This document shows, one piece after another, positions 8,441 to 60,282 of a stretch of DNA of 64,000 nucleotides. Position 1 is the stretch's first letter; every line of letters begins with the position of its first letter. The position numbers and the translations under genes were made by a program. A model generated the notes under the pieces. That model had not been told where the DNA came from and made no database searches. It was given only the letters and a program-made list of their open reading frames with translations. Location: assembly GCF_022045235.1 (NCBI RefSeq), contig NW_027266330.1:51646001-51710000 (forward strand), written 5' to 3'. The DNA is from Haliotis cracherodii. Lineage: Eukaryota.

Positions 8441-10702
8441 CCTGCTGCTAAAGAACAATAGTCTCCACTTGTATTAGTCTCGTGTGATGACGTCATAATT
8501 ATAGTCAGATTGATGAAGGCTGAAATTTGCATTGACCCCACAGACAATAAACAAGCATTGATGCCATTTGTTGCCGCTGTGATTCTATTTATAGGGGGGA
8601 AAACCCGCCCATCCATAATTAGACCTGACGCATGCACAGGCCATGCGCCGAAAACATATGAAATAGGGGCGAATTAGATGATGTGGTGAATGAGCTCTCT
8701 TTATTGGTATGTATGATTTAATTTTAAGTGAATATGATTCATGTGCATATATGACACGTGCTTCCACATTATTTGATTAACTGACGTAGTTGACAAATTT
8801 CGTTCGTGGTTGTGGAGGGCGTCACATGAAGTTTTTGACTCAGGTAAACATATTTAACTGATCCGTTTTTACCATCCCTCATCTACTGGTCTAATACACA
8901 GCCACGATTTACTCACTCCTTTCTGAGAAAGTCGGGGCGGTGGGGTAGCCTTATGGGTAAAGCGTTCGCTCGTCACGCCGAAATACCGGTTCAATTCCCA
9001 TAACGAGTACAATATTCCCATAACGAGTACGCCGTGATATTTCTGGAATATTGCTATAACCACATCTCTCACTCTAACTCTAATGCTGATTCTGCATCGG
9101 CCTTTACAGGCTCCGCGAGAGTGGGCATTTAAGACCTCGACCACTGCCATTATTGAAACAAAGCGGCTGAGTGAGGTGAACTCGACCCCTTCGTGTTTTT
9201 TAATAACCTTCAGTTGAGGAGCGGTCGGGTAGCCTAGTGGTTAAAGCGTTCGCTCGTCACGCCGAAGACCCGGGTTCGAAGACATGGGTACAATGTGTAA
9301 AGCCCATTTCTGGTGTCCCCTGCCGTGATATTGCTGGAATATTGCTAAAAGCGGCGTAAAACCACCCCCTCCACCCTCCACATACACACACGCACATAAA
9401 CTACTTTTCGCGAAGTCAGTTACGGTGTGCTCTATTAATAGTCGGGGAAAACCTAATTTTCTATATTTAGACCTGACGTCCGTCTACAGCTTTGTATATT
9501 AGAGTTAGGTGATAGGGTGCCTCATAACTACTGTAATAGTAAGTATTGTTAATAATCATAATTTGATTATTTATGATGTGCATATAAATATTGACAAGAT
9601 CTTCCGCAATAATTAATCGCATGAACAGTCTCATTAAAATCATATCTTAGTAGTCTAGTAGCTAAAAGCAATTTTCAATGCTAACCTTGCATTTGAGGTC
9701 CCACAGTGTTTTATTGCTGATTTTATAAGTTAAAGATATGTAGATCAAGAAACAACTGGATGCCAACTTGGCACCCTTGAGGATTTTAATTAAAATGTGT
9801 TTTAAAATATACCCTTGGAATCTCAAGCGCCAGCAGAGGACCGTATGGAGGCAAAATAAGTTGTTCGGTAAGTAGCACAAAATGGAGTACTTCCTGTACA
9901 GACTGTTTACATTAGTTATTCATTTTCTACCTCATTTTCACAAATAATATGGCACAATGGTAAGTTATTTTTGTTGTCCAACTGATTTATGACATAGACA
10001 TTGCAGTTATGCAGAGTAAATGAATGAGAGATAAGTGGGAAAAATAATTCAGATCAAAATGCAAACTAGTGAAGTGTCGTCTGCTAGGCTATGCATACCA
10101 ATGCTATCAAAAGCTGCATTAAACTTTATTTGTTGTTGAAATATATAACAACTATTTATATATGCATCAATATATTCATGTTTGCAAACTGTATGCAAAA
10201 TATCTCATGGAAATAATGTCTCCATTCACTTGAATTGATAGTTTGATGAAAACTGTATATACTACTTTCCAAACCACTTATCATACTGCCATAGGGTCTC
10301 TATTGACTATGCAAGTAAGGAAGAGATTTTATTTTATATTTGTCTCTAAATTGATTACTAAAATAAATTGAAAGGGTTTGATTTGTAGATACTATTTTCC
10401 TGAGAACTATTATGTTTGATATCAACCTACAAAGGAAAAAAAAGACATATTTGGCAATATGAGCCCTAAATGATTCAAATGAAATGTTACATAATTTTCA
10501 TCAAATGCAATATTGATTATTGGTACAGGTGCACTGGAAATATGTTAAATAATTGATGTATGTCTGTCAGTGGCTACAATTTCATAAATCAATTTCATAT
10601 TTATTTGAATTTTAAACTTTTTGAAACATTATAGTTAATATTTTGCTATTCAACTACCTTTCAATATATCATTAATATTTTTTTTATATTTTAAGAGAAA
10701 TA

Positions 10703-13240
10703 ATGAATCCTTTCTTTCTTCAATTTCAGTCGGGGGTTGAATGTTTATTCCAGCTGATTGGCTGTTGTAATAACCCAAATCAGAAGCTGACAGCTAATTC
10801 AACTAGTCAACGTATCATATCTATCATTGATGCTAGCAAGACCAGACAGGATGGCCTACATTTACTAATTGAAAAAAATAAATCTTCTTCTGATGTTAAT
10901 GAATTATTTTACCACAAAAACTGTGTTTCTACTTACACATCAAAGACCCACCTTAAAAGACTTTCAAAATCTTGTTCAGATAAATGCCTGCCAGAACCAT
11001 CCAAAAAGAGAAGGCGTCGTTCAGTTTCAAGCACTGACTTTAACTTTCTAAAACATTGCTTATTCTGTGGGAACCCATGTGAAATTGAAAAAGACTCTAG
11101 AAATCCTGGACGATGGAAGAGATCTCTTCTTTGCAGAACTGCAGATGATGGCCAAAGATCATTCAAGAATATAATGACGGTGAGATCAAAAACAACATCA
11201 GTTTACATGCCTTTGATAGACATGAAACCGGCTGACCCTGACACCATTTTAACTGCTATGAAGGAAGCTGACAGATTAACTAAACAAGTTGGACAAGATA
11301 TTGTTGTTTTCACATGTGACCAACAACTGTACAGGGTGGCAGTTCACATTTCATGGGCATACCCAGAAAGATTTCATAATTTCTTTCTGCGTCTTGGTGG
11401 AATGCATTTCCTTATGAACTTTATTGGATGTGTTGGCACACTGATGGCTGGAAGTAGATTGTCAGACATTCTTGAGAGCTCTTTCGGAAGTGTAGCAAAC
11501 ATGATGTCAGGAAAAAGATACCTTCAAAACTTACGAGCGTTAAGAATTCTTGTTGAAGAACTGTTAAGGAATGTGATAACAGAAGTATCCAAGACAGAAG
11601 ACTTATTGAACATCTTGGAAGGCAGAGCAAGACATGCCAGAACAACGCGATTGTGGTTGGATATGCTAATCAAACCAGTTTTGCTGATGCTACAGTTTGT
11701 CCGAGCTGAAAAAGAGGCTGATTGGCCACTCCATTTGCTTGCAGCGAAACTGATGATGCCATATTTCTTTGCTGTTGGACATCAGAACTATGCTCGTTAT
11801 GGCCTCTATTATCTTAGAACAGCAGAAGATCTAAATCCAGGACTACTTGAGAAGTTTCTCAAAGGGGAACACGTCACATGTCATACACCTGGTACTTGGA
11901 ATGGAATATGGACAGACATGATGATTGAAACTACTTTCATGAAATATGGAAAGGTCCAGATGGCATCATTGGCATCACCTTAAAGCCAAACACTCTGAAG
12001 ACATGGGCCTTGAGTCTTCATATTTGCAGTGTTTTGTCAAATGATATCTATGACATGACAAACCAGGACAAATCAACAAATCAAGTTCATAAAGAAGAAA
12101 TGAAAGGCCGAATTGCAGCAGATGCAAAAGATCGGGAAAACATTCGACAGAAGCTGCAAGAGTCAAGTGATCCACTAGACGTGTCTCAACTCCCTACTGA
12201 TAAACTTTGGCAGGTTGTGAGTGGCAGATTTGCAGACAGTACTGTGAATGTTCATAAGGCATTGGCAGGGGTCAGAAAGAAATGGAGAAATTTGAAAGGT
12301 CATGGCCAGATGGATTTCATAGGCCCTTGTCAAAGAAGATAAAGACTGTGGCTGTCTTGAAGAATCAATGTTCAGATTGGATCTGCCACGTTATATGACA
12401 CACATCTGATCTACTCCAGAATCATTGGACTTCAGGCCTCAGGAAGAGACATCAACATTTCTGAGGTCTTAAAGTTTGAGTTGGCACCAGTGCCTACTTC
12501 TATGTTTACAGATGCAGGTGTCATGAGAACAGCCACAAACAAAGCTACTTTGAGGAATCAATTGCAGGTTGAATTGTCAGAAAGCCTCCCAAAAAGCGGA
12601 CCAAAAAAGCATTATCATTGATGGTTCTGCAATGCTATGGGTGGTTCACTGGCCGAAAGATGGAAAAGTAAAAGATTTCATTGACAATGTTGCTTCATAT
12701 GTAATGAGGAAACTGAAAGACGCTGATGTGTACCTTGTATTTGACAGGTACTTTGGATACAGCATCAAAGGTGTCACAAGATCATCACGGGACAAAGAAG
12801 CCAACCGACAACACAAGATTTCTCTGTCCATGCCCCTCCCACCACAGAAGATTCTACTCACAGTTACTTCAAACAAAGTTCAACTGATAGATCTAGTAGT
12901 AGATTATCTGCAAGAGATGAGAGAATCGTTGAAAGTCTGCTCACACAAGCTAGTATTAACTGGAAGTTCCTCAGTACCTGTGGAGGTCAACAATGGTTTA
13001 CTGATTCATCGACAAGATCTCAAGACAACCCATGAAGAGGCTGATGTTATTATCATTCAGCAGGTGATATCTGTTGCAGAGTCAGTTGCCAATGCATCTA
13101 TCACAGTGGTGTGTGACAACACTGATGTGTTTGTGCTGCTACTGCATTTCTACCTATACCAACAATTAACGTGTCAGCTATGCATGGAGTCAACATCATC
13201 TGTCAACAAGAAGTGCATTGACATCAAAGCCACAGTGTGA
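10703..13240 (+). pseudogene. Decayed Academ-like DNA transposase with C-terminal XPG/PIN-like nuclease; frameshifted, probably internally deleted, 3' truncated
   Basis: Successive ORFs 10703-11983, ~11960-12342, ~12380-12570 and 12569-13240. Motifs TCDQQLY..RLGGMH..NYARY..IE, then IIDG..VFDRY..HEEAD..DNTDVFVLL. Element termini not identified. Confidence 0.7.
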
Positions 13241-15121: not shown

Positions 15122-15244
15122 ATGAACTGGGTCCGTCTTTCCGTTTATGCTGCGATCTTGGTGAACTTTGGGCTGTTTTTGACTTTTGTGACACTAACAG
15201 CATGGGAAGTGCAGCCCGACCAGGCACCCAGGATGACCCAAGAG
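15122..15244 (+). CDS. TNF-like ligand gene 1, coding exon 1 (signal anchor/TM, 41 aa)
   Basis: MNWVRLSVYAAILVNFGLFLTFVTLTAW hydrophobic segment; GAG|GTTAGT donor, phase 0. Confidence 0.7.
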
Positions 15245-16151
15245 GTTAGTAAAACCATGCACATTCAAGGATATGTCGACACAATGCTTCACACAGCCAA
15301 GGCCAACTTGTATCCGCAACATCTCTTTACCTTCTAGTCTCGGTCTTGGACCCGTGAAGATCCGGGGTAGAAAAGGTCTTCAGCAACCCATGCTTGCCGT
15401 AAATGGCGACTATGCTTGTCTTAAAAGGCGACTAACGGATCGGATGATCAGGCTCGCTGACTTGGTTGATGGATGTCATCATATCCCAGTTGTGTGGATC
15501 GATGCTCGTGATGTCAATCAATCGATTGTCTGGTCCAGACTCGATTATTGCCGAGTGCGGCGTTAAACAATAAGCAAATAAAACAAACAAAAAGTTTTGC
15601 CCTTGATACATACATAAACACACACCGTGACAGATAATAGATATATCTTTTCTTTATTTTGTGAAATACCATATATATCGCATTTGGTCTGAAATTTGTT
15701 TTGTGACTAGTGAGCTAATGTTTTTTCATCCTCTGCTTTCATTACTGATCGTTATTATCCAAAATCCACTGTGATATTGACGGAAAGTATATCAGTCATG
15801 GTGAAATTATATTTATTGCATCCCCTCGCAAATACTTCTGTTCTTTTTGTGTGTTATGTATTTGTCTGAAATGTCAGAATATATAAATTTCAATGCACAT
15901 ACCATATATATCGCATTTGGTCTGAAATTTGTTTTGTGACTAGTGAGCTAATGTTTTTTCATCCTCTGCTTTCATTACTGATCGTTATTATCCAAAATCC
16001 ACTGTGATATTGACGGAAAGTATATCAGATAAAACATGATTTTTAACCACAGTGAAAAGTCCAGTTAGTGTTTTCGGATAAATATAGTAGTTTAACTCCA
16101 TGTATGCATACTGATACTGATGCGACGTTAAATTTTAACACACTCGCTCAC

Positions 16152-18342: not shown

Positions 18343-18659
18343 GTAGGTTGCACGTGTTCAATTCAATTAAACATTTTATATCTGTAAGTGTAGTAGTTGT
18401 TTGTTTGTTTGTTGTTTAACTCCGCACTCGATGACATGGATCGATGACATGCACCAACCGAGTCTGACCACCCGCTCCTGTTAGTCGCCTCTTCCGACAA
18501 GCAGAGTCGCCTTTTACGGCAAGCATGGGTTGCTGAAGACCTATTCTATCCCGGATCTCCACGGGCCTGTAAGTGTGGTAGCAAAGATCACACAACATTA
18601 AGACAATAATAACAGGAAATATTTCTGTACACTGTATTTGTTTTTGTTTTTTTCTTAAG

Positions 18660-19039
18660 GCAGCAGCATTGTCAAGTTGGACGTCGGTGCTGCCACAGAA
18701 GAGATGACTGCTGCCTTGCTCCAAGGTTTCCAATTAGATGATGGCTCCATCAATGTGCTTGTATCCGGCTACTACGTCATCCTCATGGACGTGACCTACT
18801 TCTTCCGTGGCCACATCGATGGGTCACAAGTCAAGGTGTACGTGAGATGCGTCCAGTCCGACCCTGCGAAAGATCTTGTACGGATCTCACAATTATGCAG
18901 GATAGGGAGATATTGTTCCCTTACATTTCAGAGCATTTCGTATTTGTCTCTGACTGCAAAACTCCACTGTGAAGCCAACCATGCCAGTGATATAGTCACC
19001 GCCATTGCGAATACTCACATCAGCCTTGCATTCTTTTGA
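18660..19039 (+). CDS. TNF-like gene 1, last exon (divergent TNF homology domain); spliced protein 215 aa
   Basis: Long polypyrimidine tract plus AG at 18658-59. GFQLDDGSINVLVSGYYVILMDVTY fits the TNF pattern G-x-x-L-x-D-G-x-L-x-V-x3-G-x-Y; stop at 19037-39. Confidence 0.7.
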
Positions 19040-25178: not shown

Positions 25179-25622
25179 ATGGCGGTCCTGACCGTGCACA
25201 CTGAACCTCGCAAGGCAAAATACAAGCTGTGTGATGATGCATCTGGTATGTTGGAAAGCAGTAAAGTGGAACACCGCCCACATCAAAGGGACGCTACTGC
25301 AGGACGCTGCGACGGAGACTCACGCAGGGCGAAGCTGTACTTCGGTGTAGCTGTACTCTTAGTGTCACTGGGGGTCAATATCATAGGCGCAGTGTACCTC
25401 TGGAGAGCTGTTGGACGCGAAAGGAATGACGGTCCGCGAGCTGAGGCTCTTGTGTCGGTGTTGCACGATGAGGGCACGGTTTGCACGGACTGCGGGTCAC
25501 TTGGTGTTCAGCCGGGCACTTACAAGTCTGACTTGCACGGGCTTTACGTGCGTCACGTGACGGGATCATCCTATTTGTGTTGTTTACAAAATGCTGAAGG
25601 ATTATGGAGACTCGCCTCGATA
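25179..25622 (+). CDS. TNF-superfamily ligand gene 2, exon 1 (cytoplasmic tail, TM, CxxC..CC stalk; 148 aa)
   Basis: aaaATGg start; TM LYFGVAVLLVSLGVNIIGAVYLW; ATA|GTGAGT donor, phase 0. Confidence 0.9.
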
Positions 25623-27507: not shown

Positions 27508-27625
27508 TTCACGAACAGGTTCTACAAACACACACAGTCAGGCACAATCCCAAGCGAAGCACCAGGAACTGACGAAGGCACTGGAGCTCACCTCTACGTA
27601 GACAGCGATGCCCTGAAGTCGGATT
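27508..27625 (+). CDS. TNF ligand gene 2, exon 2 (FTNRFYK...GAHLYVDSDALKSD)
   Basis: tgtttAG acceptor, T|GTACGT donor; contains TNF strand A motif AHL; 118 nt, phase 0-1. Confidence 0.88.
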
Positions 27626-28687: not shown

Positions 28688-29085
28688 CGCCGTCCTTACA
28701 ATGGAATCAGGACTACGGCTACGGCTCAGCTTACAAAGGGATCGACATCAAAAGTGATGGAGAGAATCTTCACATAACAAAACCTGGCCTATATCACGTC
28801 TACTCCTTCTTCACGTTCAAAACTCACCAACCACGTCAACATCCTGACAACGTCTTACATACCATCAGAAGAAGCAACGCCCATCTGCCGAATTTGGGGC
28901 GCACTGTTCTTCTCATGGCCAAGAAGACCTTACCGGAAGCCAGCGAGAGATTCGTCACGAGTTATCTGTCCGCTACAGTCAGACTGAGGCAGGATGATCA
29001 CGTGTCTGTCACTGTCAGCAACATGTCACATGTCTACCGATATCCGCCATCAAATTTCTTTGGCTTGTACTACGTAGGGGAGTGA
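28688..29085 (+). CDS. TNF ligand gene 2, exon 3 (TNF homology domain); spliced protein 319 aa
   Basis: cattcgcAG acceptor; LQW...LHITKPGLYHVYS...TSYLSATVRLRQDDHVSV...NFFGLY, canonical THD motifs. Confidence 0.92.
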
Positions 29086-36357: not shown

Positions 36358-36738
36358 ATGGCCGACACGCCAGAGGACAGTTATCTGAGAGTGGAACATT
36401 TCCAATCACAGACAGAAACACAACCAATTCCAAGGAGATCCTGCACGACTAAACGCTGCATCGTTACGGCTGCTCTTGTTCTGTCGTTGTCTGTTAATGC
36501 AGTGGGTGTGTTCTATTGGTACTATCACCACTCCCAGCACGCCGTCAACGACGGTCAGTCAGCAGAAGTGTCTGAAGTTCTTACCAACACGTTATGCACG
36601 GGCTGCGCGGACATAGGCGTACATCCGGGCACAAGCAACATTTCCGATCTGGAGGATCTTTTTGTGCTTGAAATGCCTGGCTCGTCCTGTTTGTGCTGTC
36701 TGCAGAATATCGGGGGTCTACAGATGCTGTTGACGCTC
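36358..36738 (+). CDS. TNF-superfamily ligand gene 3, exon 1 (TM plus CxxC..CC stalk; 127 aa)
   Basis: TM CIVTAALVLSLSVNAVGVFYWYY; CTC|GTAAGT donor, phase 0; homologous to gene 2 exon 1. Confidence 0.9.
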
Positions 36739-38036: not shown

Positions 38037-39545
38037 CTCTTCAAAAAAAGAAACTTGACAGATGTTCAACCACTTTTTGCCAAATATCTAAAATAATGAC
38101 ATTAAATGAGAACCAAATAAGTCAAACAGAAAGATGATGTGTCTATAATTCGCGAAAACACATGCAAAGCACATAAACGTAGCGTTTGGGGATCAATTTT
38201 ACAGCTTCATCCAAACGCAACCGCCTGTAAAAAAACGTGCAGCACAGGAGCCTGCATTTAAGCATGCAGGCCCCCCTGCTGAATGGGTATAAAAATCCAC
38301 ATCAACGGCTGATCATACAGTCCTTATAACGGCAGTAGAGGCGGTGACAGAATGCCAAGACTGAATGCAGCTCAACGGAACATCGCCATTGGGAGATTAC
38401 AAGCTGGAGCAACTCAGCAAGAAGTGGCCAGGCACTCTGGCGTATCCAGACAGACAATCTCTGCACTGTGGACCCGATACAACAACACCAACAGAATTGA
38501 CGACAGACCAAGGTCAGGAAGACCAAGGGTTACAACCCAAGCACAAGATCGATACATCTGGCTGCGATACCTCCGAGACCGCACTGCCACAGCCACGTCT
38601 ACAACCACACAGGGTACGCAGAATATCAGATCAAACGGTACGCAACAGACTGAGGGAGGCTGGACTTTTTGCACGAAGACCTGGTCGACGTCATGTATTG
38701 ACCCCACGTCATCTGGCGGACCGTCTGCTTTGGTGCCAACAGAGGGTTAGATGGGCACGTGCAAGGTGGACAAAATGTACTGTTTACTGACGAGTCCCGG
38801 TTCCTACTCACACGTGCTGTTGGGCGCGCACGTGTCTACAGACATCGGGGTGAACGTTACGCCCCCAACTGTGTGCAGCAGGTTGTCCCATTTGGCGGCG
38901 GGAGTGTCATGGTATGGGCCGGAATTCATCACGGTGGTAGAACGCCTCTCGTGCATGTGACAGGTGCATTGACAGGTGTGCGTTACAGAGACTTAATCCT
39001 GCAGCCTTACGTTCTTCCTCGCGTCAACGTTCATGGCGGACAGTTCCAGCAGGACAACGCTCGACCGCATATTGCACATGTTTGTCAGGGCTTCTTACGG
39101 CACAACAACATCCAGACATTAGCTTTGGCCAGCCCGGTCACCAGATTTGTCCCCGATTGAGCATCTGTGGGACGAGTTGGATCGACGCGTTCGCAGAAGG
39201 AATCCACCGCCCCAAACACCCCCCGGCGCTTCTTGATGCACTTCAGCATGAATGGCAGCACATCCAACAGCGTGTTATTGACAACTTGATTGCATCTATG
39301 GGTCGTCGGTGTCAAGCGGTGATTGATGCACGTGGTGGGCACAACCGATACTGACATTTTCTGTACCCCTGTGACATTAACTGTATCGTGTACGTGTGTC
39401 TGTCTAGGTGACACGATTAATGTTTTGAACATTGTATACATTGATCTTCAAACAGTGTTTCATTTATGGTTTCTGTGTCCTATTTTGAAACAATCGCATT
39501 ATATTACATTTTGAAAGTCGGTGTCAAGTTTCTTTTTTTGAAGAG
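38037..39545 (+). mobile_element. Full-length Tc1/mariner (DD34E) element with frameshifted transposase (38352-39354), in intron 1 of TNF gene 3
   Basis: 24-bp TIR ctcttcaaaaaaagaaacttgaca / tgtcaagtttctttttttgaagag with flanking TA. MPRL..GRPR, FTDESRF, QQDNARPH, and SPDLSPIE after correcting a 1-nt insertion. Confidence 0.93.
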
Positions 39546-40849: not shown

Positions 40850-40961
40850 TTCACTGCTCAATCCAACACCTCGTCCAGAGCTCAACAAACGGATGCCGAT
40901 TATGTCTTCAGTCGAAAGACCGGAGCCCATCTGTATCTTAACCGCGATGCATCGAAACGAA
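40850..40961 (+). CDS. TNF ligand gene 3, exon 2 (FTAQSN...TGAHLYLNRDASKR)
   Basis: tttctattcAG acceptor and A|GTAAGT donor; AHLY motif; 112 nt, phase 0-1. Confidence 0.9.
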
Positions 40962-41732: not shown

Positions 41733-42127
41733 GTGGATCGCTAGAATGGACTGATGAATCCAACGATTCCGCCTACGTAAGTAAAAGCGTCATCTGCGAC
41801 AACAAGACCCTCCAAATCAAACGGCGCGGCCTCTATCACATCTACTCCTGCCTCACACTCAAAACCCACGACTGGCACCGTTACCCTGACAAAACCGTTC
41901 ATATTATGACGAGGAGCAACGCAAACCTGCCCACACTCGGCAAGACTACCATTATCATGGCCAAGAAGACCTTACCGGAAGCCAGCGAGAGGTTCGGCAC
42001 GAGTTATCTGTCCGCTACAGTCAGACTGAGGCAGGGCGATCACGTGTCTGTAGCTATCAGCAACATGTCATATGTCTATCAACATCCGCCTTCTAATTTC
42101 TTTGGCTTGTACTACGTAGGGGACTGA
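41733..42127 (+). CDS. TNF ligand gene 3, exon 3 (TNF homology domain); spliced protein 295 aa
   Basis: ttcttttcAG acceptor; LEW...LQIKRRGLYHIYS...LRQGDHVSV...NFFGLY. Confidence 0.92.
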
Positions 42128-47427: not shown

Positions 47428-47784
47428 ATGTCTGCAGCATACAGCATCATAGACGAAGAAGACGGCGTCGTTAAAGAGAAGCACCGTTTGCCATGTGAAC
47501 AGACAACTGCCTGTCTCATAGTGACTCTTTCAATTTTTGTGAATCTGACATTAGGAGTCACTATATTTTTTAGCATTAATCTGGGATATGGTACAGAATT
47601 AGCATCCAGGACATCCCCATCTCGACATATGACTGACAGGTACTCCGTATGCACAGAGTGTCATTACTTTGGACACGCAGAGAAACATCCACGACACGGG
47701 AGACTTGTCCAGAGAGTGGAGACTAACGATGGACAGATTTGCTGCCTTCACCAAGCTGAGAGCCTATGGAGGCTTCTGAACCTG
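47428..47784 (+). CDS. TNF-superfamily ligand gene 4, exon 1 (TM plus CxxC..CC stalk; 119 aa)
   Basis: TM ACLIVTLSIFVNLTLGVTIFFSI; CTG|GTAGGT donor, phase 0. Confidence 0.9.
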
Positions 47785-48344: not shown

Positions 48345-48438
48345 ATACATATGAAGTCCTTGATGCAGCAACCGACGTCCCCCGGGCAAGTGTCGTTCCC
48401 GCCGCCGTCGGCGCACCTGTATCTTGACACACTACAAG
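48345..48438 (+). CDS. TNF ligand gene 4, exon 2 (IHMKS...PSAHLYLDTLQ)
   Basis: atttccAG acceptor and AAG|GTAATG donor; PSAHL motif; 94 nt, phase 0-1. Confidence 0.88.
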
Positions 48439-49990: not shown

Positions 49991-51479
49991 CTCAACAACA
50001 AAAGTTCCTGTGACACCAATGTTTTAGTGTATTTTTCAAACAAGTAAAGTTTTCAATATTGTATTACATGTATGGAATCAAGTCACAAAAACGCAACTGC
50101 TACAGAAAAGCATGCATTCCATGCAAAAGTTGCCTTTTATGCAAGCCCCATGCATTTCACTACCCAAGAATGGGTATATAAACTTGTTCATTAACGGGAT
50201 TCCATATGCATTGTTTAGCATCGTGCTGACAACAACCACTCAGAAGAACAACAAAATTACGAAATTATTCAACATTACGAAATGCCACGCCTGTCCCCAA
50301 ATGGGCGTCTGCGAGCCATTGGTATGCTTGAAGCAGGATCGAGTAACCGTGATGTTGCAAGACAATTAAAGTATAAAGAAACACCATTTGGTGTTTATGG
50401 CAACATTGGCAACAGACGAATGCAGTCAGAGACCATCCTCGGAGTGGCAGGCCATGCGTAACCAATAATCGACAAGACAAATGGATTCGAACAACACACC
50501 TACGAAATCGATTCCAGCCAGCAACAGTGACTGCAAGAAGCATCCCTGGCCTTCGACGAATATCTTCACAAACCGTACGTCGTCGCCTCAGATGTGCAGG
50601 GACTGTCGCCAGAAGACCCGCCAGACGTCCCATTTTGACAGGAAACCACCGTCAGTGGTACAGACAGCGTCTACGCTGGACGGCCATGCAGTGGGGACAA
50701 GTTCTATTCACTGACCAGTCTCGTTTTCACCTCAGCCACGGCGATGGACGGATTGGAGTGTACCGACGTCGAGGTGAACGTTACGTCAATCAGTGTGTCA
50801 TGGAAGAAGATCGGTTCGTGAGCGGCAGCGTTATGGTATGGGGTAGGATAACAGCAAGACAGAGGACCCGTTTAATAGTGGTAGAGGGAAATTTCAATGG
50901 ACAGCGCTACCGCGACGAGATCATCGGCCCTGTTGTTCTACCGTTTTTGCGCCGTCATGACCCAGGCATTACCTTTTAACATGACAACGCCCGGCCTTAT
51001 ATTGCTCGACTTGTTCAGGATTCTCTTTAACAAAACAACGTGAATGTAATCCCCTGGCCGGCTCGCTCCCCTGATCTCTCACCAATCGAGCACATGTGGG
51101 ATGAGATGGATCGGCGTCTTCGACGTCAACCACGTGTTCAGCAGACAATCCAGGAACATCGAAACATGCTCCAGCAGATATAGACAGATATCCCACAGGA
51201 CTTTGTGCGAAGCCTGGTCCATTCCAAGAGACGATGATGTGTTGCTTGCATCGCAACCAGAGGTGGACACACACGCTATTGATTTGTAAATGGACATTTT
51301 GGCATGTTCATGTTTTTGTATGAAATCACGCATTTTCTGAAGTCAGTATGGCAAAGTAAACCATTTGAACACTTACAGGAGTCGTTTATCTGTTGGAAAC
51401 CGAAAATGTTTCAGATTTGGTAAAAAATATAACTTAGCATTAAATCTTATTCAATGTCACAGGAACTTTTGTTGTTCAT
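49991..51479 (+). mobile_element. Second full-length Tc1 element (different family), transposase 50282-51282 with stops and frameshifts, in intron 2 of TNF gene 4
   Basis: TIR core caacaacaaaagttcctgtgaca / tgtcacaggaacttttgttgtt, TA flanks. FTDQSRF, HDNARP, WPARSPDLSPIEHMW, GGHTRY. Confidence 0.9.
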
Positions 51480-53076: not shown

Positions 53077-53474
53077 AATCTGACTACAAATGGAGCGATG
53101 AGTTCGGGTATGGGGCTGCCCACGTGACAGGGGGAATCAAGATGGCGTCGGGAAGATTACAAATATCACATCCTGGCTACTATAACATCTACTCCTTCAT
53201 CACGCTGAAGACGAGATCGGAACTAACCAGCAACCTGAGAGTGAAACATTCAATAAGAAGAATCAGCAAGCATCCAGAACCACATACTGATATTGTGTTA
53301 CAAAGAAGTGCTTCCATGTCCAGAATTAGTGAAACATTCATCAACAGTTATCTAGATGGTGTGATTAAACTCGATGCAAAAGACGAAATATATGTTGACG
53401 TTTCAAATGTAAGTTCTATTTATAAGTATGCACCTTCCAATGTATTTGGTTTACATCTTGTAAGATATATATGA
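53077..53474 (+). CDS. TNF ligand gene 4, exon 3 (TNF homology domain); spliced protein 282 aa
   Basis: ccctttcAG acceptor; YKW...GRLQISHPGYYNIYS...SYLDGVIKLDAKDEIYVDVS...NVFGL. Confidence 0.92.
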
Positions 53475-53634
53475 TATAGGCATAGGGATTAGTTTCATAT
53501 ATATATCCCAATCTCTATATACGAGCTTTATAAGTATGCACCTTCCAATGTATTTGGTTTACATCTTGTAAGATATATATGATATCGGCATAGGGATTAG
53601 TTTCATATATATATCCAAATCTCTATATGCGAGC
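53419..53634 (+). repeat. 108-bp tandem duplication spanning the TNF gene 4 stop codon
   Basis: 53419-53526 vs 53527-53634, 3 mismatches. Confidence 0.95.
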
Positions 53635-57385: not shown

Positions 57386-58285
57386 CGGTGCTGATCAGTG
57401 GCGACATGGGAGAATTGGATGGGGAAGAGAAGAATCGGAAGGGGAAGGAGGGCAGGCAGTTGGCAGTAAACTTACGACCCTTAAGGACCCGTGAAGATTC
57501 CGGGATGGAATAGTCTTCAGCAACCCATACTTGCCGTAAAAGGTGACTATGCTTGTCGTAAAAGGCGACTAACGGGATCGGGTGGTCAGGCTCGCTGACT
57601 TGATTTATGCATGTCATCGATCCCAATTGCGTGGATCGATGCTCATGATATTAATCACTGGATTGTCTGGTCAATTGAACATGTTATTGACGTAGGATAC
57701 GAACATATGTAGGTATAAAGCTTAATGTTTACACCGTTGTCATTGAAGAATGAAAAATCGGACACGTTTCTACAAATACATAACAGATGAGAATGTTAAC
57801 AGTATTTGGCAAAAGACATGTTCATCGCTATTTTAAAAATTGTTGCACATACTAATTATTCTTTTTGATTAACATTACGCCAAATGGAATCGGCGGATAA
57901 TCCAGACTAGTTATTCTCTAGCATTGACATTTTATATTTTATACCCTACTGAGCTCTTCCAAAATAAAAGGTTGTTCTGCATGTTTCTGATACATAAGAA
58001 GATAAGGATAATCTCATCTTTCTTTCAGTGTGAAATATATCAACACGAGTCAATAAAAGCGTGTAATCTATTGGTGTTGACAAGAAACGTGTGTGAGATT
58101 ATTTGTATCTTCCGAAAATAATTGTTCAACGTTTTCATTTTGTAAACAAGGGGTACGTTTTCGCGACTTGTCCAAAGGCGGCAGGTCATAAACTCCGGTC
58201 TCGGGACCGAGAGTTGGTCGCTTCGACCTTGACCGTGGCGCGAAAACGACTTTCACCTTGACCGCAGCGCGAAATTCAAAACAAC

Positions 58286-60282
58286 ATGGCGGATGGAGGA
58301 ATCTGCAGTACTGGGTTGGCTGCGTTGACAGACGCTATCGATGAGCCAAACCAGTTTTTGTTTGATTATTTATTAAGGCCACAATATCGAAGAAGATCGT
58401 CTTTATTATCAAGTGCCTGTCTTCTTGAAATGCAGCCAGACGACCATCCTCATCATGAGGAGTATGCTGAAGTGATTGTCCCCCGATACTCAACTGATGA
58501 TTTCCAATCTCACTTCAGGTTGCACAAGACAAGCTTCGAACAGCTGTGTCAGGTATTACACCAAACAGATCCGAGTATTGTCACTACCTTCTCTGGAGGT
58601 AATACGCCTGTGTCCCTGGAAAAGTCGACTATGATCACGCTTTGGTACCTTGCAAATCAAGATTCCATGAGGACCATCAGCGTTAAATTTGGAGTAGCCA
58701 AGAGCAGTGTCCACTCGGTCGTACACACGGTGAATACAGTGATTGAAAAGATTGCAAAGAAATACATAAACTGGCCTGATGCACAGTTGCATCAATTGCA
58801 TCAGAATTTCAAGACCGTGTAGGATTTCCAGGTAAGTAGACAAGTGGATATCCGGATAATTTTCATAGATAATTGTATTCATTTGTATGATTATTTATAT
58901 TGCTAAACTATCATCTATTGATCATGTTGAAACATGTCACGTATATTTTTGTCGGGTCTTAGACCAGTTCATAATATATAATTGTATAAGTTGTAACAAT
59001 ATACATGATGAATATACTCTGAATTTGTGTCCTTATATATAGGCCTACTTGAAAACCTTTATGTCCCCTTTGACTTTTAGTCCCCCTCCGCTGCATGCTA
59101 ACCTGCACTGTAACATAGCAGTGTGGCGAATAGCATCTGTACAAGTCCATATAAGTCATTAGCCAGGCAACAGGAGGACCTGGGGGGTCAGGTTAGAAGG
59201 AAGTGAGGCAAAGTAGTCTGTTGTAGCCTATAAGTGCACAGACCCGTGCAGATTCCGGGGTAGTATAGGTCTTCAGCAACCCATGCTTGCCGTAAAAGGT
59301 GACTATGCTTGTCCTAAAAGGCGACTAACGGGATCGGGTGGTCAGGCTGCTGACTTGGTTGATGCATGTCATCGATCCCAATTGCGTGGATCGATGCTCG
59401 TGATATCAGTCACTGGATTGTCTGGTCCAGATTCGGTTATTTACAGACCGCCGTCATATAGCTGGAATATTGCTGAGTGCGGCGTTTAACAACAACCTAA
59501 CCAACCAACCAACCAACTATAAGTGTACATTGTAGAGCAGACATATTTTTTATGCTATCAGGAGTCATTGGAGCCATCGATGGTTGCCACATTCCCATTA
59601 AAGCTTCATCAAGTCACCAGGAGGAATACAACAACAGGAAAATGACCCATACAGTCATCTTACAGGCAGTCTGTGACAGCTATCTATCTATCTATCTATC
59701 TCCAAAGTAATGTCTTAGAAATATAGACAAACAAACTGTTTTGTATTCAATCACAATTGTATTTCAATATATTTCAACCTAATTTACAATGAACAAATAA
59801 CAAAATTATGTTAACAATCTATGACCATGTGTCTGTTTGTTTCAGGAGTACCTGGATCAGCCCATGATGCACGTGTTTTCAGCCATTCAAACCTGTCTCA
59901 GTCTATTCAAAGTAATATGGCTCAGCACTTTCCTGATGGAAAGTATCATTTGGTAGGGGATTCTGCATATGCCCTAAAGAAATGGCTGATGGTTCCATAC
60001 AAGGACCATGGTAATTTGAAGATGGCTCATTTGAAACAGTCTCAAATAAGAATTGTACTTGAAATTGCTTTTGGGCATTTGAAAAACAGGTTTCGTAGGT
60101 TAAAGTATATTGATTCCAAAATTCCATGTCTCCTACACAACTTCTGCAAGTACCATGATGATGATGTTCCAGACAGTGTAGAGTCTGATGACAGCTACGG
60201 TGTAGCTACTCCTCAACCCACTGGCAATACCAGCAGTACTGCTGGCTCACAGAAGCATGATGCAATTGCCAATTCCTTATAA
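58286..60282 (+). pseudogene. PIF/Harbinger (HARBI1-like, DDE_Tnp_4) transposase pseudogene with introns
   Basis: Segments 58286-58831 (FRL..LWYLA..FGVAKSSV..GFP, frameshifted near 58820), 59562-59680 (GVIGAIDGCHIPI..YNNRK..LQAVCD) and 59846-60282 (PGSAHDARVF..GDSAY..EIAFGHLKNRFR). Confidence 0.85.
59241..59517 (+). mobile_element. SINE-like family D (~270 bp, no clear tRNA head, (AAAC/AACC)n tail), representative copy
   Basis: Most abundant repeat in the window. Copies at ~2951-3200, 4607-4871, 14700-14947, 15349-15590, 18395-18567, 21107-21371, 22138-22311, 25709-25922, 30515-30720, 31315-31500, 33530-33797, 36950-37395, 39751-40005, 41128-41560, 42200-42438, 42668-42955, 44394-44655, 45870-46053, 47857-48215, 49317-49592, 57486-57672. 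Confidence 0.9.

Follow-up and report, generated by a model that had tools for sequence, protein, structure and literature searches.

The stalks of three tandem TNF ligand genes of the abalone Haliotis cracherodii share a cysteine motif, C-x2-C-x26-29-C-C, encoded in all three on the forward (+) strand. We provisionally regard the segment around this motif as a real stalk domain of molluscan and nemertean TNF ligands, apparently an unnamed one, in an otherwise known ligand family. The module spans about 55 residues between the membrane anchor and the TNF domain, and is probably a constrained, folded extracellular unit. For its role we propose that two intrachain disulfides would staple a small collar onto a three-helix neck stabilising the ligand trimer, a model whose prospects we consider evenly balanced. 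The identity of the genes as TNF superfamily ligands is unchanged by this finding; the function of the module is a prediction, and the likeliest version of it has a functional precedent.

Gene models and the motif in the window

The window, by which we mean the whole 64-kb stretch of DNA analysed, contains the motif just as it had been predicted for genes 2, 3 and 4, with the first cysteine codon at 25482, 36595 and 47650, the start of the adjacent cysteine pair at 25578, 36694 and 47740 (all +), and 28, 29 and 26 residues, respectively, separating C-x2-C from CC. The six reading frames contain three instances of C-x2-C-x20-35-CCL, and 30 simulations of the window with a third-order Markov model gave 0.13 on average; the pattern was picked post hoc and its three instances belong to paralogues, which makes conservation outside the window the stronger evidence.

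Genes 2, 3 and 4 each form a three-exon frame without stops and with GT–AG borders, encoding 319, 295 and 282 aa, respectively. In gene 2 (+), exon 1 (25179..25622) encodes the cytoplasmic tail, the transmembrane helix, a stalk linker and most of the module, as indicated by its open reading frame, its GT donor, a contig join and 86% identity to Haliotis rufescens P0001, the closest named protein. The transmembrane segment at about residues 53–76 (25335..25406) is a hydrophobic stretch with an S-x3-N motif, matching the AlphaFold helix 54–86 of P0001, while the module (25473..25622) would consist of a strand with C-x2-C (25482–25493), a short helix, a loop, a beta-hairpin ending in CC (25578–25583) and the start of an amphipathic helix. 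Exon 2 (27508..27625), defined by contig joins, tblastn and the extent of the helix, supplies the remainder of the module helix in approximately its first eight codons, followed by a linker and the first TNF-domain strand; exon 3 (28688..29085) contains the TNF homology domain (PF00229, E 9.5e-16) and is supported by a contig join and by its frame. The contigs come from runs presumed to be RNA and carry neither expression level nor strand: they show the GT..AG joins 25622->27508 in three of four runs and 27625->28688 in four of four, and one contig of 1386 bases covers all three exons. None of the joins listed from these presumed-RNA contigs belongs to gene 3.

The first exon of gene 3 (36358..36738, +; C-x2-C at 36595, CC at 36694–36699) is recovered at E 8.6e-13 by a module profile that includes gene 3 itself. 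Its predicted exon 2 (40850..40961, +) has AG/GT borders, an open frame and a tblastn match with P0006, and its exon 3 (41733..42127, +) holds the TNF homology domain in frame (PF00229, E 3.4e-14). One extra cysteine, the fifth, stands two residues before CC (36688–36690, +), at a position occupied by tyrosine in P0006, the closest database relative. Exon 1 of gene 4 (47428..47784, +; C-x2-C at 47650, CC at 47740–47745) is the top match of a profile built from distant rows (E 0.0012); a predicted exon 2 (48345..48438, +), with AG/GT borders, an open frame and a tblastn match with P0008, is followed by exon 3 with the TNF homology domain in frame (53077..53474, +; PF00229, E 8.3e-11). The last 17 codons of this domain are repeated just past the stop as a short tandem duplication (53493–53579, +). 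A phase-0 GT donor closes each exon 1 (25622, 36738 and 47784), with the first cysteine of CC 15 codons away in all three genes.

Membership in the TNF superfamily is indicated by the last exons, all three of which score above the Pfam cut-off for PF00229 (TNF), and by the top Foldseek matches, FasL, TL1A and TNF, at E ~1e-10. The single N-terminal hydrophobic segment, modelled as a high-confidence helix in P0001, agrees with a type II anchor. Gene 1 of the same window has a membrane-anchor exon (15122–15334, +) and a last exon (18659–19036, +) that resembles TNF but has diverged strongly, its TNF score lying below the cut-off (PF00229, E 0.024), and the profile search of 2857 window ORFs found no cysteine module in it. 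The introns of the neighbouring genes contain broken transposase-like frames, which to judge from their motifs may be Tc1/mariner, at ~38300–39350 in intron 1 of gene 3 and at ~50300–51180 in intron 2 of gene 4 (+), and two long transposon-like frames at 10676–13237 and 58262–60279 (+) are, judging from their motifs, presumably Academ-like and PIF/Harbinger-like, respectively. A database protein of 154 aa, P0004, has the first 23 residues of gene 2 fused straight to the TNF domain, without membrane helix or module, and may be a mis-prediction or a soluble isoform.

Conservation and taxonomic range

With full-length P0001 as query, 71 proteins were retrieved, 41 of which are full-length-like (membrane helix, 230–600 aa); the 30 set aside comprise 29 fragments or proteins without a clear membrane helix, two of them with the motif, and one unrelated match of 1307 aa. 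All four cysteines are present in 38 of the 41 full-length-like proteins. For 19 of the 41 the best-scoring stretch started no earlier than query residue 150, downstream of the cysteines, so that these were not picked for the cysteines; 16 of the 19 carry the motif. The three full-length-like proteins without it come from a fish, a sawfish and Sinanodonta, the last with C-x2-C and without CC or helix. Two near-identical proteins of Sinanodonta woodiana, P0037 and P0092, keep C-x2-C while CC and the helix are absent; they may have undergone a natural deletion, may be copies in decay or may result from a faulty gene model.

Carriers of the module are found among gastropods (Haliotis, Gigantopelta), bivalves (Mytilus, Pinctada, Saccostrea, Crassostrea, Ylistrum, Mizuhopecten, Argopecten, Ruditapes, Mactra, Sinanodonta, Potamilus) and nemerteans (Tubulanus, Lineus). 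A tree of 56 proteins based on their last 155 residues, midpoint-rooted for drawing only, places the module in both major halves and on every major branch, nemerteans included. With a profile made from nine distant rows, none of them from Haliotis, the three window exons take the first places among the 2857 ORFs, gene 4 at the top, albeit weakly (E 0.0012, 0.059 and 0.13, with the next match at 0.27). In alignments A2 and A3 the invariance of the four cysteines is partly circular, the rows having been picked by the motif.

Taking the spliced gene 2 as reference, module identity equals or exceeds that of the TNF domain in six of nine comparisons and is lower in three, and it is higher than that of the cytoplasmic tail and of both linkers in all nine. 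Judged by sequence identity, conservation of the module is close to that of the TNF domain and higher than that of its non-membrane flanks. The original prediction had called the flanks unalignable, which is apt for the poorly conserved cytoplasmic tail and linkers but not for the transmembrane segment, which can be aligned and often carries S-x3-N. Might the motif nevertheless be due to chance or recent duplication only, with paralogues sharing an unconstrained stretch? The three genes are indeed tandem paralogues, but the faster divergence of the flanks, the presence of the motif in 38 of 41 full-length-like matches and its spread over both halves of the tree, including nemerteans, refute this explanation, to which we give practically no credence.

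Of 43 aligned proteins, 28 have the S-x3-N motif in their membrane helix (A3, at P0001 columns 68 and 72), among them all three window genes (25335–25406, ~36480–36520 and ~47500–47560, +), and is absent from the branch of nemertean, scallop and clam proteins. A buried asparagine can drive the oligomerisation of membrane helices, and S-x3-N may act together with the module.

A word-limited search with the module profile recovered 24 proteins from 4403 candidates. PF00229 is present in 18 of them; the others are P0079, an isoform of a named TNF gene without PF00229, and five short forms resembling exon 1 alone, and no non-TNF host of the module is apparent among these 24 matches. Five database proteins resembling exon-1 read-throughs diverge from their spliced relatives at one and the same point, 15 residues from the first cysteine of CC, where they run on with Val-Ser, and these relatives group in the tree with mussel and clam or with unionid proteins. 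As the read-throughs part at the same position and their relatives group among bivalves, the intron position appears to be common to bivalves, as far as proteins can tell. Searches reaching further were less productive: the search with alignment A5 for deuterostome and annelid relatives gave only four proteins, a metagenome scan produced 282 pattern matches with none confirmed, and the ESM Atlas had no usable match for P0001 residues 100–165. A full-length mussel protein did retrieve TNF clusters from the ESM Atlas, with Mollusca as the commonest taxon, a result that says nothing on the range of the module.

Predicted structure and comparison with known folds

A single membrane helix precedes the module and the TNF domain follows it, and with the orientation taken from the family the module would be extracellular. 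Its first cysteine is found 15–41 residues past the membrane helix, and CC 31–101 residues ahead of the TNF domain. The predicted elements follow in a fixed order: a first strand (V-C-x-P/D-C) leads into a short helix and a loop of variable length, after which come a beta-hairpin with L-C-C-L in its second strand and an amphipathic helix of approximately 18 residues; the spacer between the two cysteine pairs measures 17–32 residues, with a median of 27. In the AlphaFold2 model of P0001 these elements correspond to strand 105–109, helix 110–113, strands 127–131 and 137–142 and helix 144–161, with module pLDDT of ~70–80 in the full model, i.e. moderate confidence, and the module modelled alone has the same order of elements (mean pLDDT 67, pTM 0.44). 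Hydrophobic residues flank the cysteines in 54–56 of 60 distinct modules and occupy helix columns 147, 150, 151 and 154 in 86–100%, and the hydrophobic periodicity of the helix peaks at 90–100 degrees. Separate conservation and this periodicity uphold the expectation of a small cysteine domain with an amphipathic helix after it.

The module had also been claimed always to end at the boundary of exon 1. The donor is indeed constant, but the predicted helix continues for about eight residues into exon 2: the intron follows P0001 residue 153 and cuts the helix 144–161, which would carry the module past the boundary, and hydrophobic columns 154–155, just beyond it, are conserved.

The view that no named domain has this pattern is borne out by searches of Pfam and PDB sequences. 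The three window modules match no Pfam family at E up to 1, a set of 40 modules gives just scattered weak single-member matches, none above the curated cut-off, and in 43 full-length proteins TNF alone recurs, with C1q weak in three. PDB sequences contain no match to the module profile at E up to 10. Structural searches with a 54-residue model of moderate confidence were equally blank: Foldseek returned nothing from PDB and BFVD at E up to 0.001, and none of 48161 chains reached a Z of at least 5 in VIA-align, the best match of this moderate-confidence model having Z 3.7 and rmsd 3.7 over 51 aligned residues. The known folds considered were KH, LAGLIDADG and eIF1-like beta-alpha-beta-beta-alpha. 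Blank fold searches are, of course, no proof of a new fold. Neither a match to a described domain nor a loss of the cysteines in orthologues without a confident fold was encountered.

Two cysteine-rich candidates were considered and rejected. A RING finger has eight cross-braced Cys/His ligands, whereas the module has four conserved cysteines and no conserved histidine, and zf-C3HC4 gives weak sub-threshold scores in two of 40 modules. The core of the TNF receptor cysteine-rich domain is given as CXXCXXC or CXXCXXXC in bioRxiv 10.1101/2024.07.27.603686; no third cysteine stands at the required spacing in the alignment, and no receptor-domain family appears in the Pfam results.

Proposed role of the module

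What could such a module do in the stalk of a TNF ligand? Adjacent residues in a beta-strand point their side chains to opposite faces. CC lies inside the predicted strand 137–142 of P0001, and since the side chains of neighbouring strand residues face opposite ways, the pair would suit two cross-strand bonds better than one metal site. The extracellular position and the predicted strand around CC together make disulfides seem likelier than metal, two options that the original prediction had named side by side. In the model that we favour, the four invariant cysteines would pair in the secretory pathway as two intrachain disulfides tying strand 1 to the strand that holds CC; the simplest pairing would be C1–C4 and C2–C3 on opposite faces, if the strands are antiparallel neighbours. 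In genes 2 and 4 the four cysteines of the module, an even number, are the sole ones of the ectodomain. The helices of three chains would then pack into a short neck with the beta-part as a collar, and the neck would keep the three TNF domains joined at their N-termini and at a set height over the membrane, stabilising the signalling trimer much as added trimerisation domains do on engineered TRAIL and CD95L. Because TNF ligands are trimeric and the amphipathic helices are directly upstream of the TNF domains, the location of three such helices would favour a short bundle.

Several observations count against the neck: the moderate confidence of the model, a proline within the helix region in eight of 60 modules, at least five cysteines in the wider stalk window in 32 of 54 proteins, and the absence of CC from P0037 and P0092. 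The module's own sheet could also bury the whole hydrophobic face of the helix, leaving none for the trimer. Furthermore, TNF domains trimerise unaided (PMC7905041), so a neck is not strictly required.

An alternative with a monomeric unit would keep the disulfides and dispense with the trimer contacts. The module would then be a rigid spacer, or would offer a partner such as a sheddase, a co-receptor or a matrix protein a site for docking or masking, and it would control how the ligand is released or presented and not how stable the trimer is. Conservation among close paralogues is as strong as in the TNF domain, loop included, the loop carries signatures specific to clades, and vertebrate ligand stalks are sites of proteolytic release (PMC7905041 and PMC6678900), all of which would be expected of such a site. 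Distant members, however, keep just the cysteines and the hydrophobic positions of buried type around a loop of 17–32 residues, and as the loop varies while cysteines and hydrophobics stay, a structural core fits better than a shared binding surface. Nor is there a strict furin site (R-x-K/R-R) on either side of the module in any of 52 proteins. We consider the spacer or docking reading rather unlikely.

Metal binding would turn the same cysteines into a small zinc ribbon, with one zinc per chain or between chains. Zinc ribbons combine C-x2-C with a distant cysteine pair on a beta-hairpin, an arrangement that the module resembles, and C-x2-C-G is typical of zinc knuckles, though only eight of 60 modules have it. 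The sub-threshold RING-finger scores (E 0.015 and 0.35 in two of 40 modules) point the same way; a RING, however, requires eight ligands and the module has four. TRAIL provides a precedent for cysteine-bound zinc in an extracellular TNF ligand (PMC6678900). The extracellular, glycosylation-prone location, with N-glycosylation sequons in 16 of 54 modules, and the adjacent cysteines within a predicted strand make a zinc site, in our estimate, an improbable one.

If the cysteines bonded between chains instead, or if collars made contact with each other, the module would cross-link chains or trimers into covalent trimers or higher-order clusters suited to receptors that require clustering. A fifth cysteine at the hairpin turn, 5–6 residues before CC, in nine of 54 proteins and the extra one two residues before CC in gene 3 could serve this purpose, and clustering raises the activity of CD95L and TRAIL (PMC6678900 and PMC12219679). 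Exactly four cysteines are nonetheless the rule (50 of 60 modules), and the fifth cysteine of gene 3 is missing in its close relative P0006; we deem cross-linking improbable as well.

The remaining reading concerns the first cysteine pair alone, with C-x-P-C at the strand-to-helix junction acting as a redox switch that gates ligand activity in an oxidative burst. Thioredoxin-type C-G-P-C occupies a strand-helix junction, as the motif does in our model, and 28 of 60 modules have proline as the second inner residue. The window genes, by contrast, have D, G and E at this position, and C-x2-C is accompanied by CC in all but two of the proteins compared, as structural pairs would be. We regard a redox switch as very improbable indeed, and return to the disulfide-stapled neck as the preferred reading.

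The module gives a concrete hypothesis for the stabilisation or release of invertebrate TNF trimers. Recombinant molluscan TNFs made as the TNF domain alone may miss an element that sets activity. With a second conserved domain, which nemerteans have too, annotation and classification of these genes also gain a new marker.

Comparison with known TNF ligands

Molluscan TNF families are large—the Pacific oyster has 23 TNF genes (cited in PMC7674686)—and in the text portions available are described as membrane anchor and TNF domain alone. This applies to PmTNF, MgTNF-3, AbTNF-alpha and ChTNF, members of the same family given as a transmembrane region plus TNF domain; a stalk cysteine module goes unmentioned in the available text on them (PMC12367993, PMC11869874), where figure alignments might show the motif. 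The portions seen of bioRxiv 10.1101/2024.07.27.603686, PMC12843592, PMC7674686 and PMC7905041, and likewise of PMC6678900, PMC12219679 and PMC11762692, contain no stalk cysteine module in their text. A literature search by titles and abstracts, whose coverage excluded most subscription journals, found no description of it.

The abalone ligands share the membrane helix, the stalk and the C-terminal TNF domain with TNF superfamily ligands (PF00229) at large, the nearest solved being TRAIL (TNFSF10), RANKL (TNFSF11), FasL (TNFSF6) and TL1A. The four-cysteine stalk module, which is probably folded, is in contrast a feature of the abalone ligands in a region that solved TNF ligand constructs do not cover: the cysteines are at profile positions 108–141, and in none of the 60 PDB sequences listed does the best-matching stretch begin before position 165.

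Vertebrate stalks had been taken as mostly unstructured or coiled coil, and the premise that they lack features of this kind proves too strong. A fish ligand, P0072 of Coilia grayii, which we take to be CD40L-like although its source record says hypothetical, has at the place of the module a cysteine pair followed by a helix-like amphipathic stretch, with C-x12-C in place of C-x2-C...CC. A profile comparison of the module with this one fish stalk gave a probability of 0.1%, with only the TNF domain aligned, and kinship of the module with vertebrate stalks is a lead only. Trimer stabilisation, which we propose for the module, is itself a feature of the TRAIL stalk (PMC6678900). More speculatively, the module might be an ancient unnamed fold that already formed the stalk when TNF ligands arose in early bilaterians, its collar stapled by disulfides onto a neck of three helices and setting membrane-bound, shed or clustered signalling; lophotrochozoans would have kept it through their TNF expansions, and the cysteine-plus-helix stalks of CD40L/TRAIL type in vertebrates would be its eroded remnant. 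We think this unlikely; were it true, it would explain why stalks of this type stabilise trimers and would supply a compact natural trimerisation tag.

The closest functional parallel is provided by engineered necks, in which tenascin-C, the coiled coil of surfactant protein D (SP-D) or a leucine/isoleucine zipper is placed on TRAIL or CD95L: a helical segment placed ahead of the TNF domain anchors the ends of the three chains and increases activity, as reported for tenascin-C, SP-D or zipper fusions of TRAIL (PMC6678900) and for CD95L with fixed N-termini (PMC12219679). These necks are heterologous fusions, and their likeness to the module is one of functional analogy. Should the neck reading hold, the module would be the natural counterpart of the trimerisation tags on therapeutic TNF ligands.
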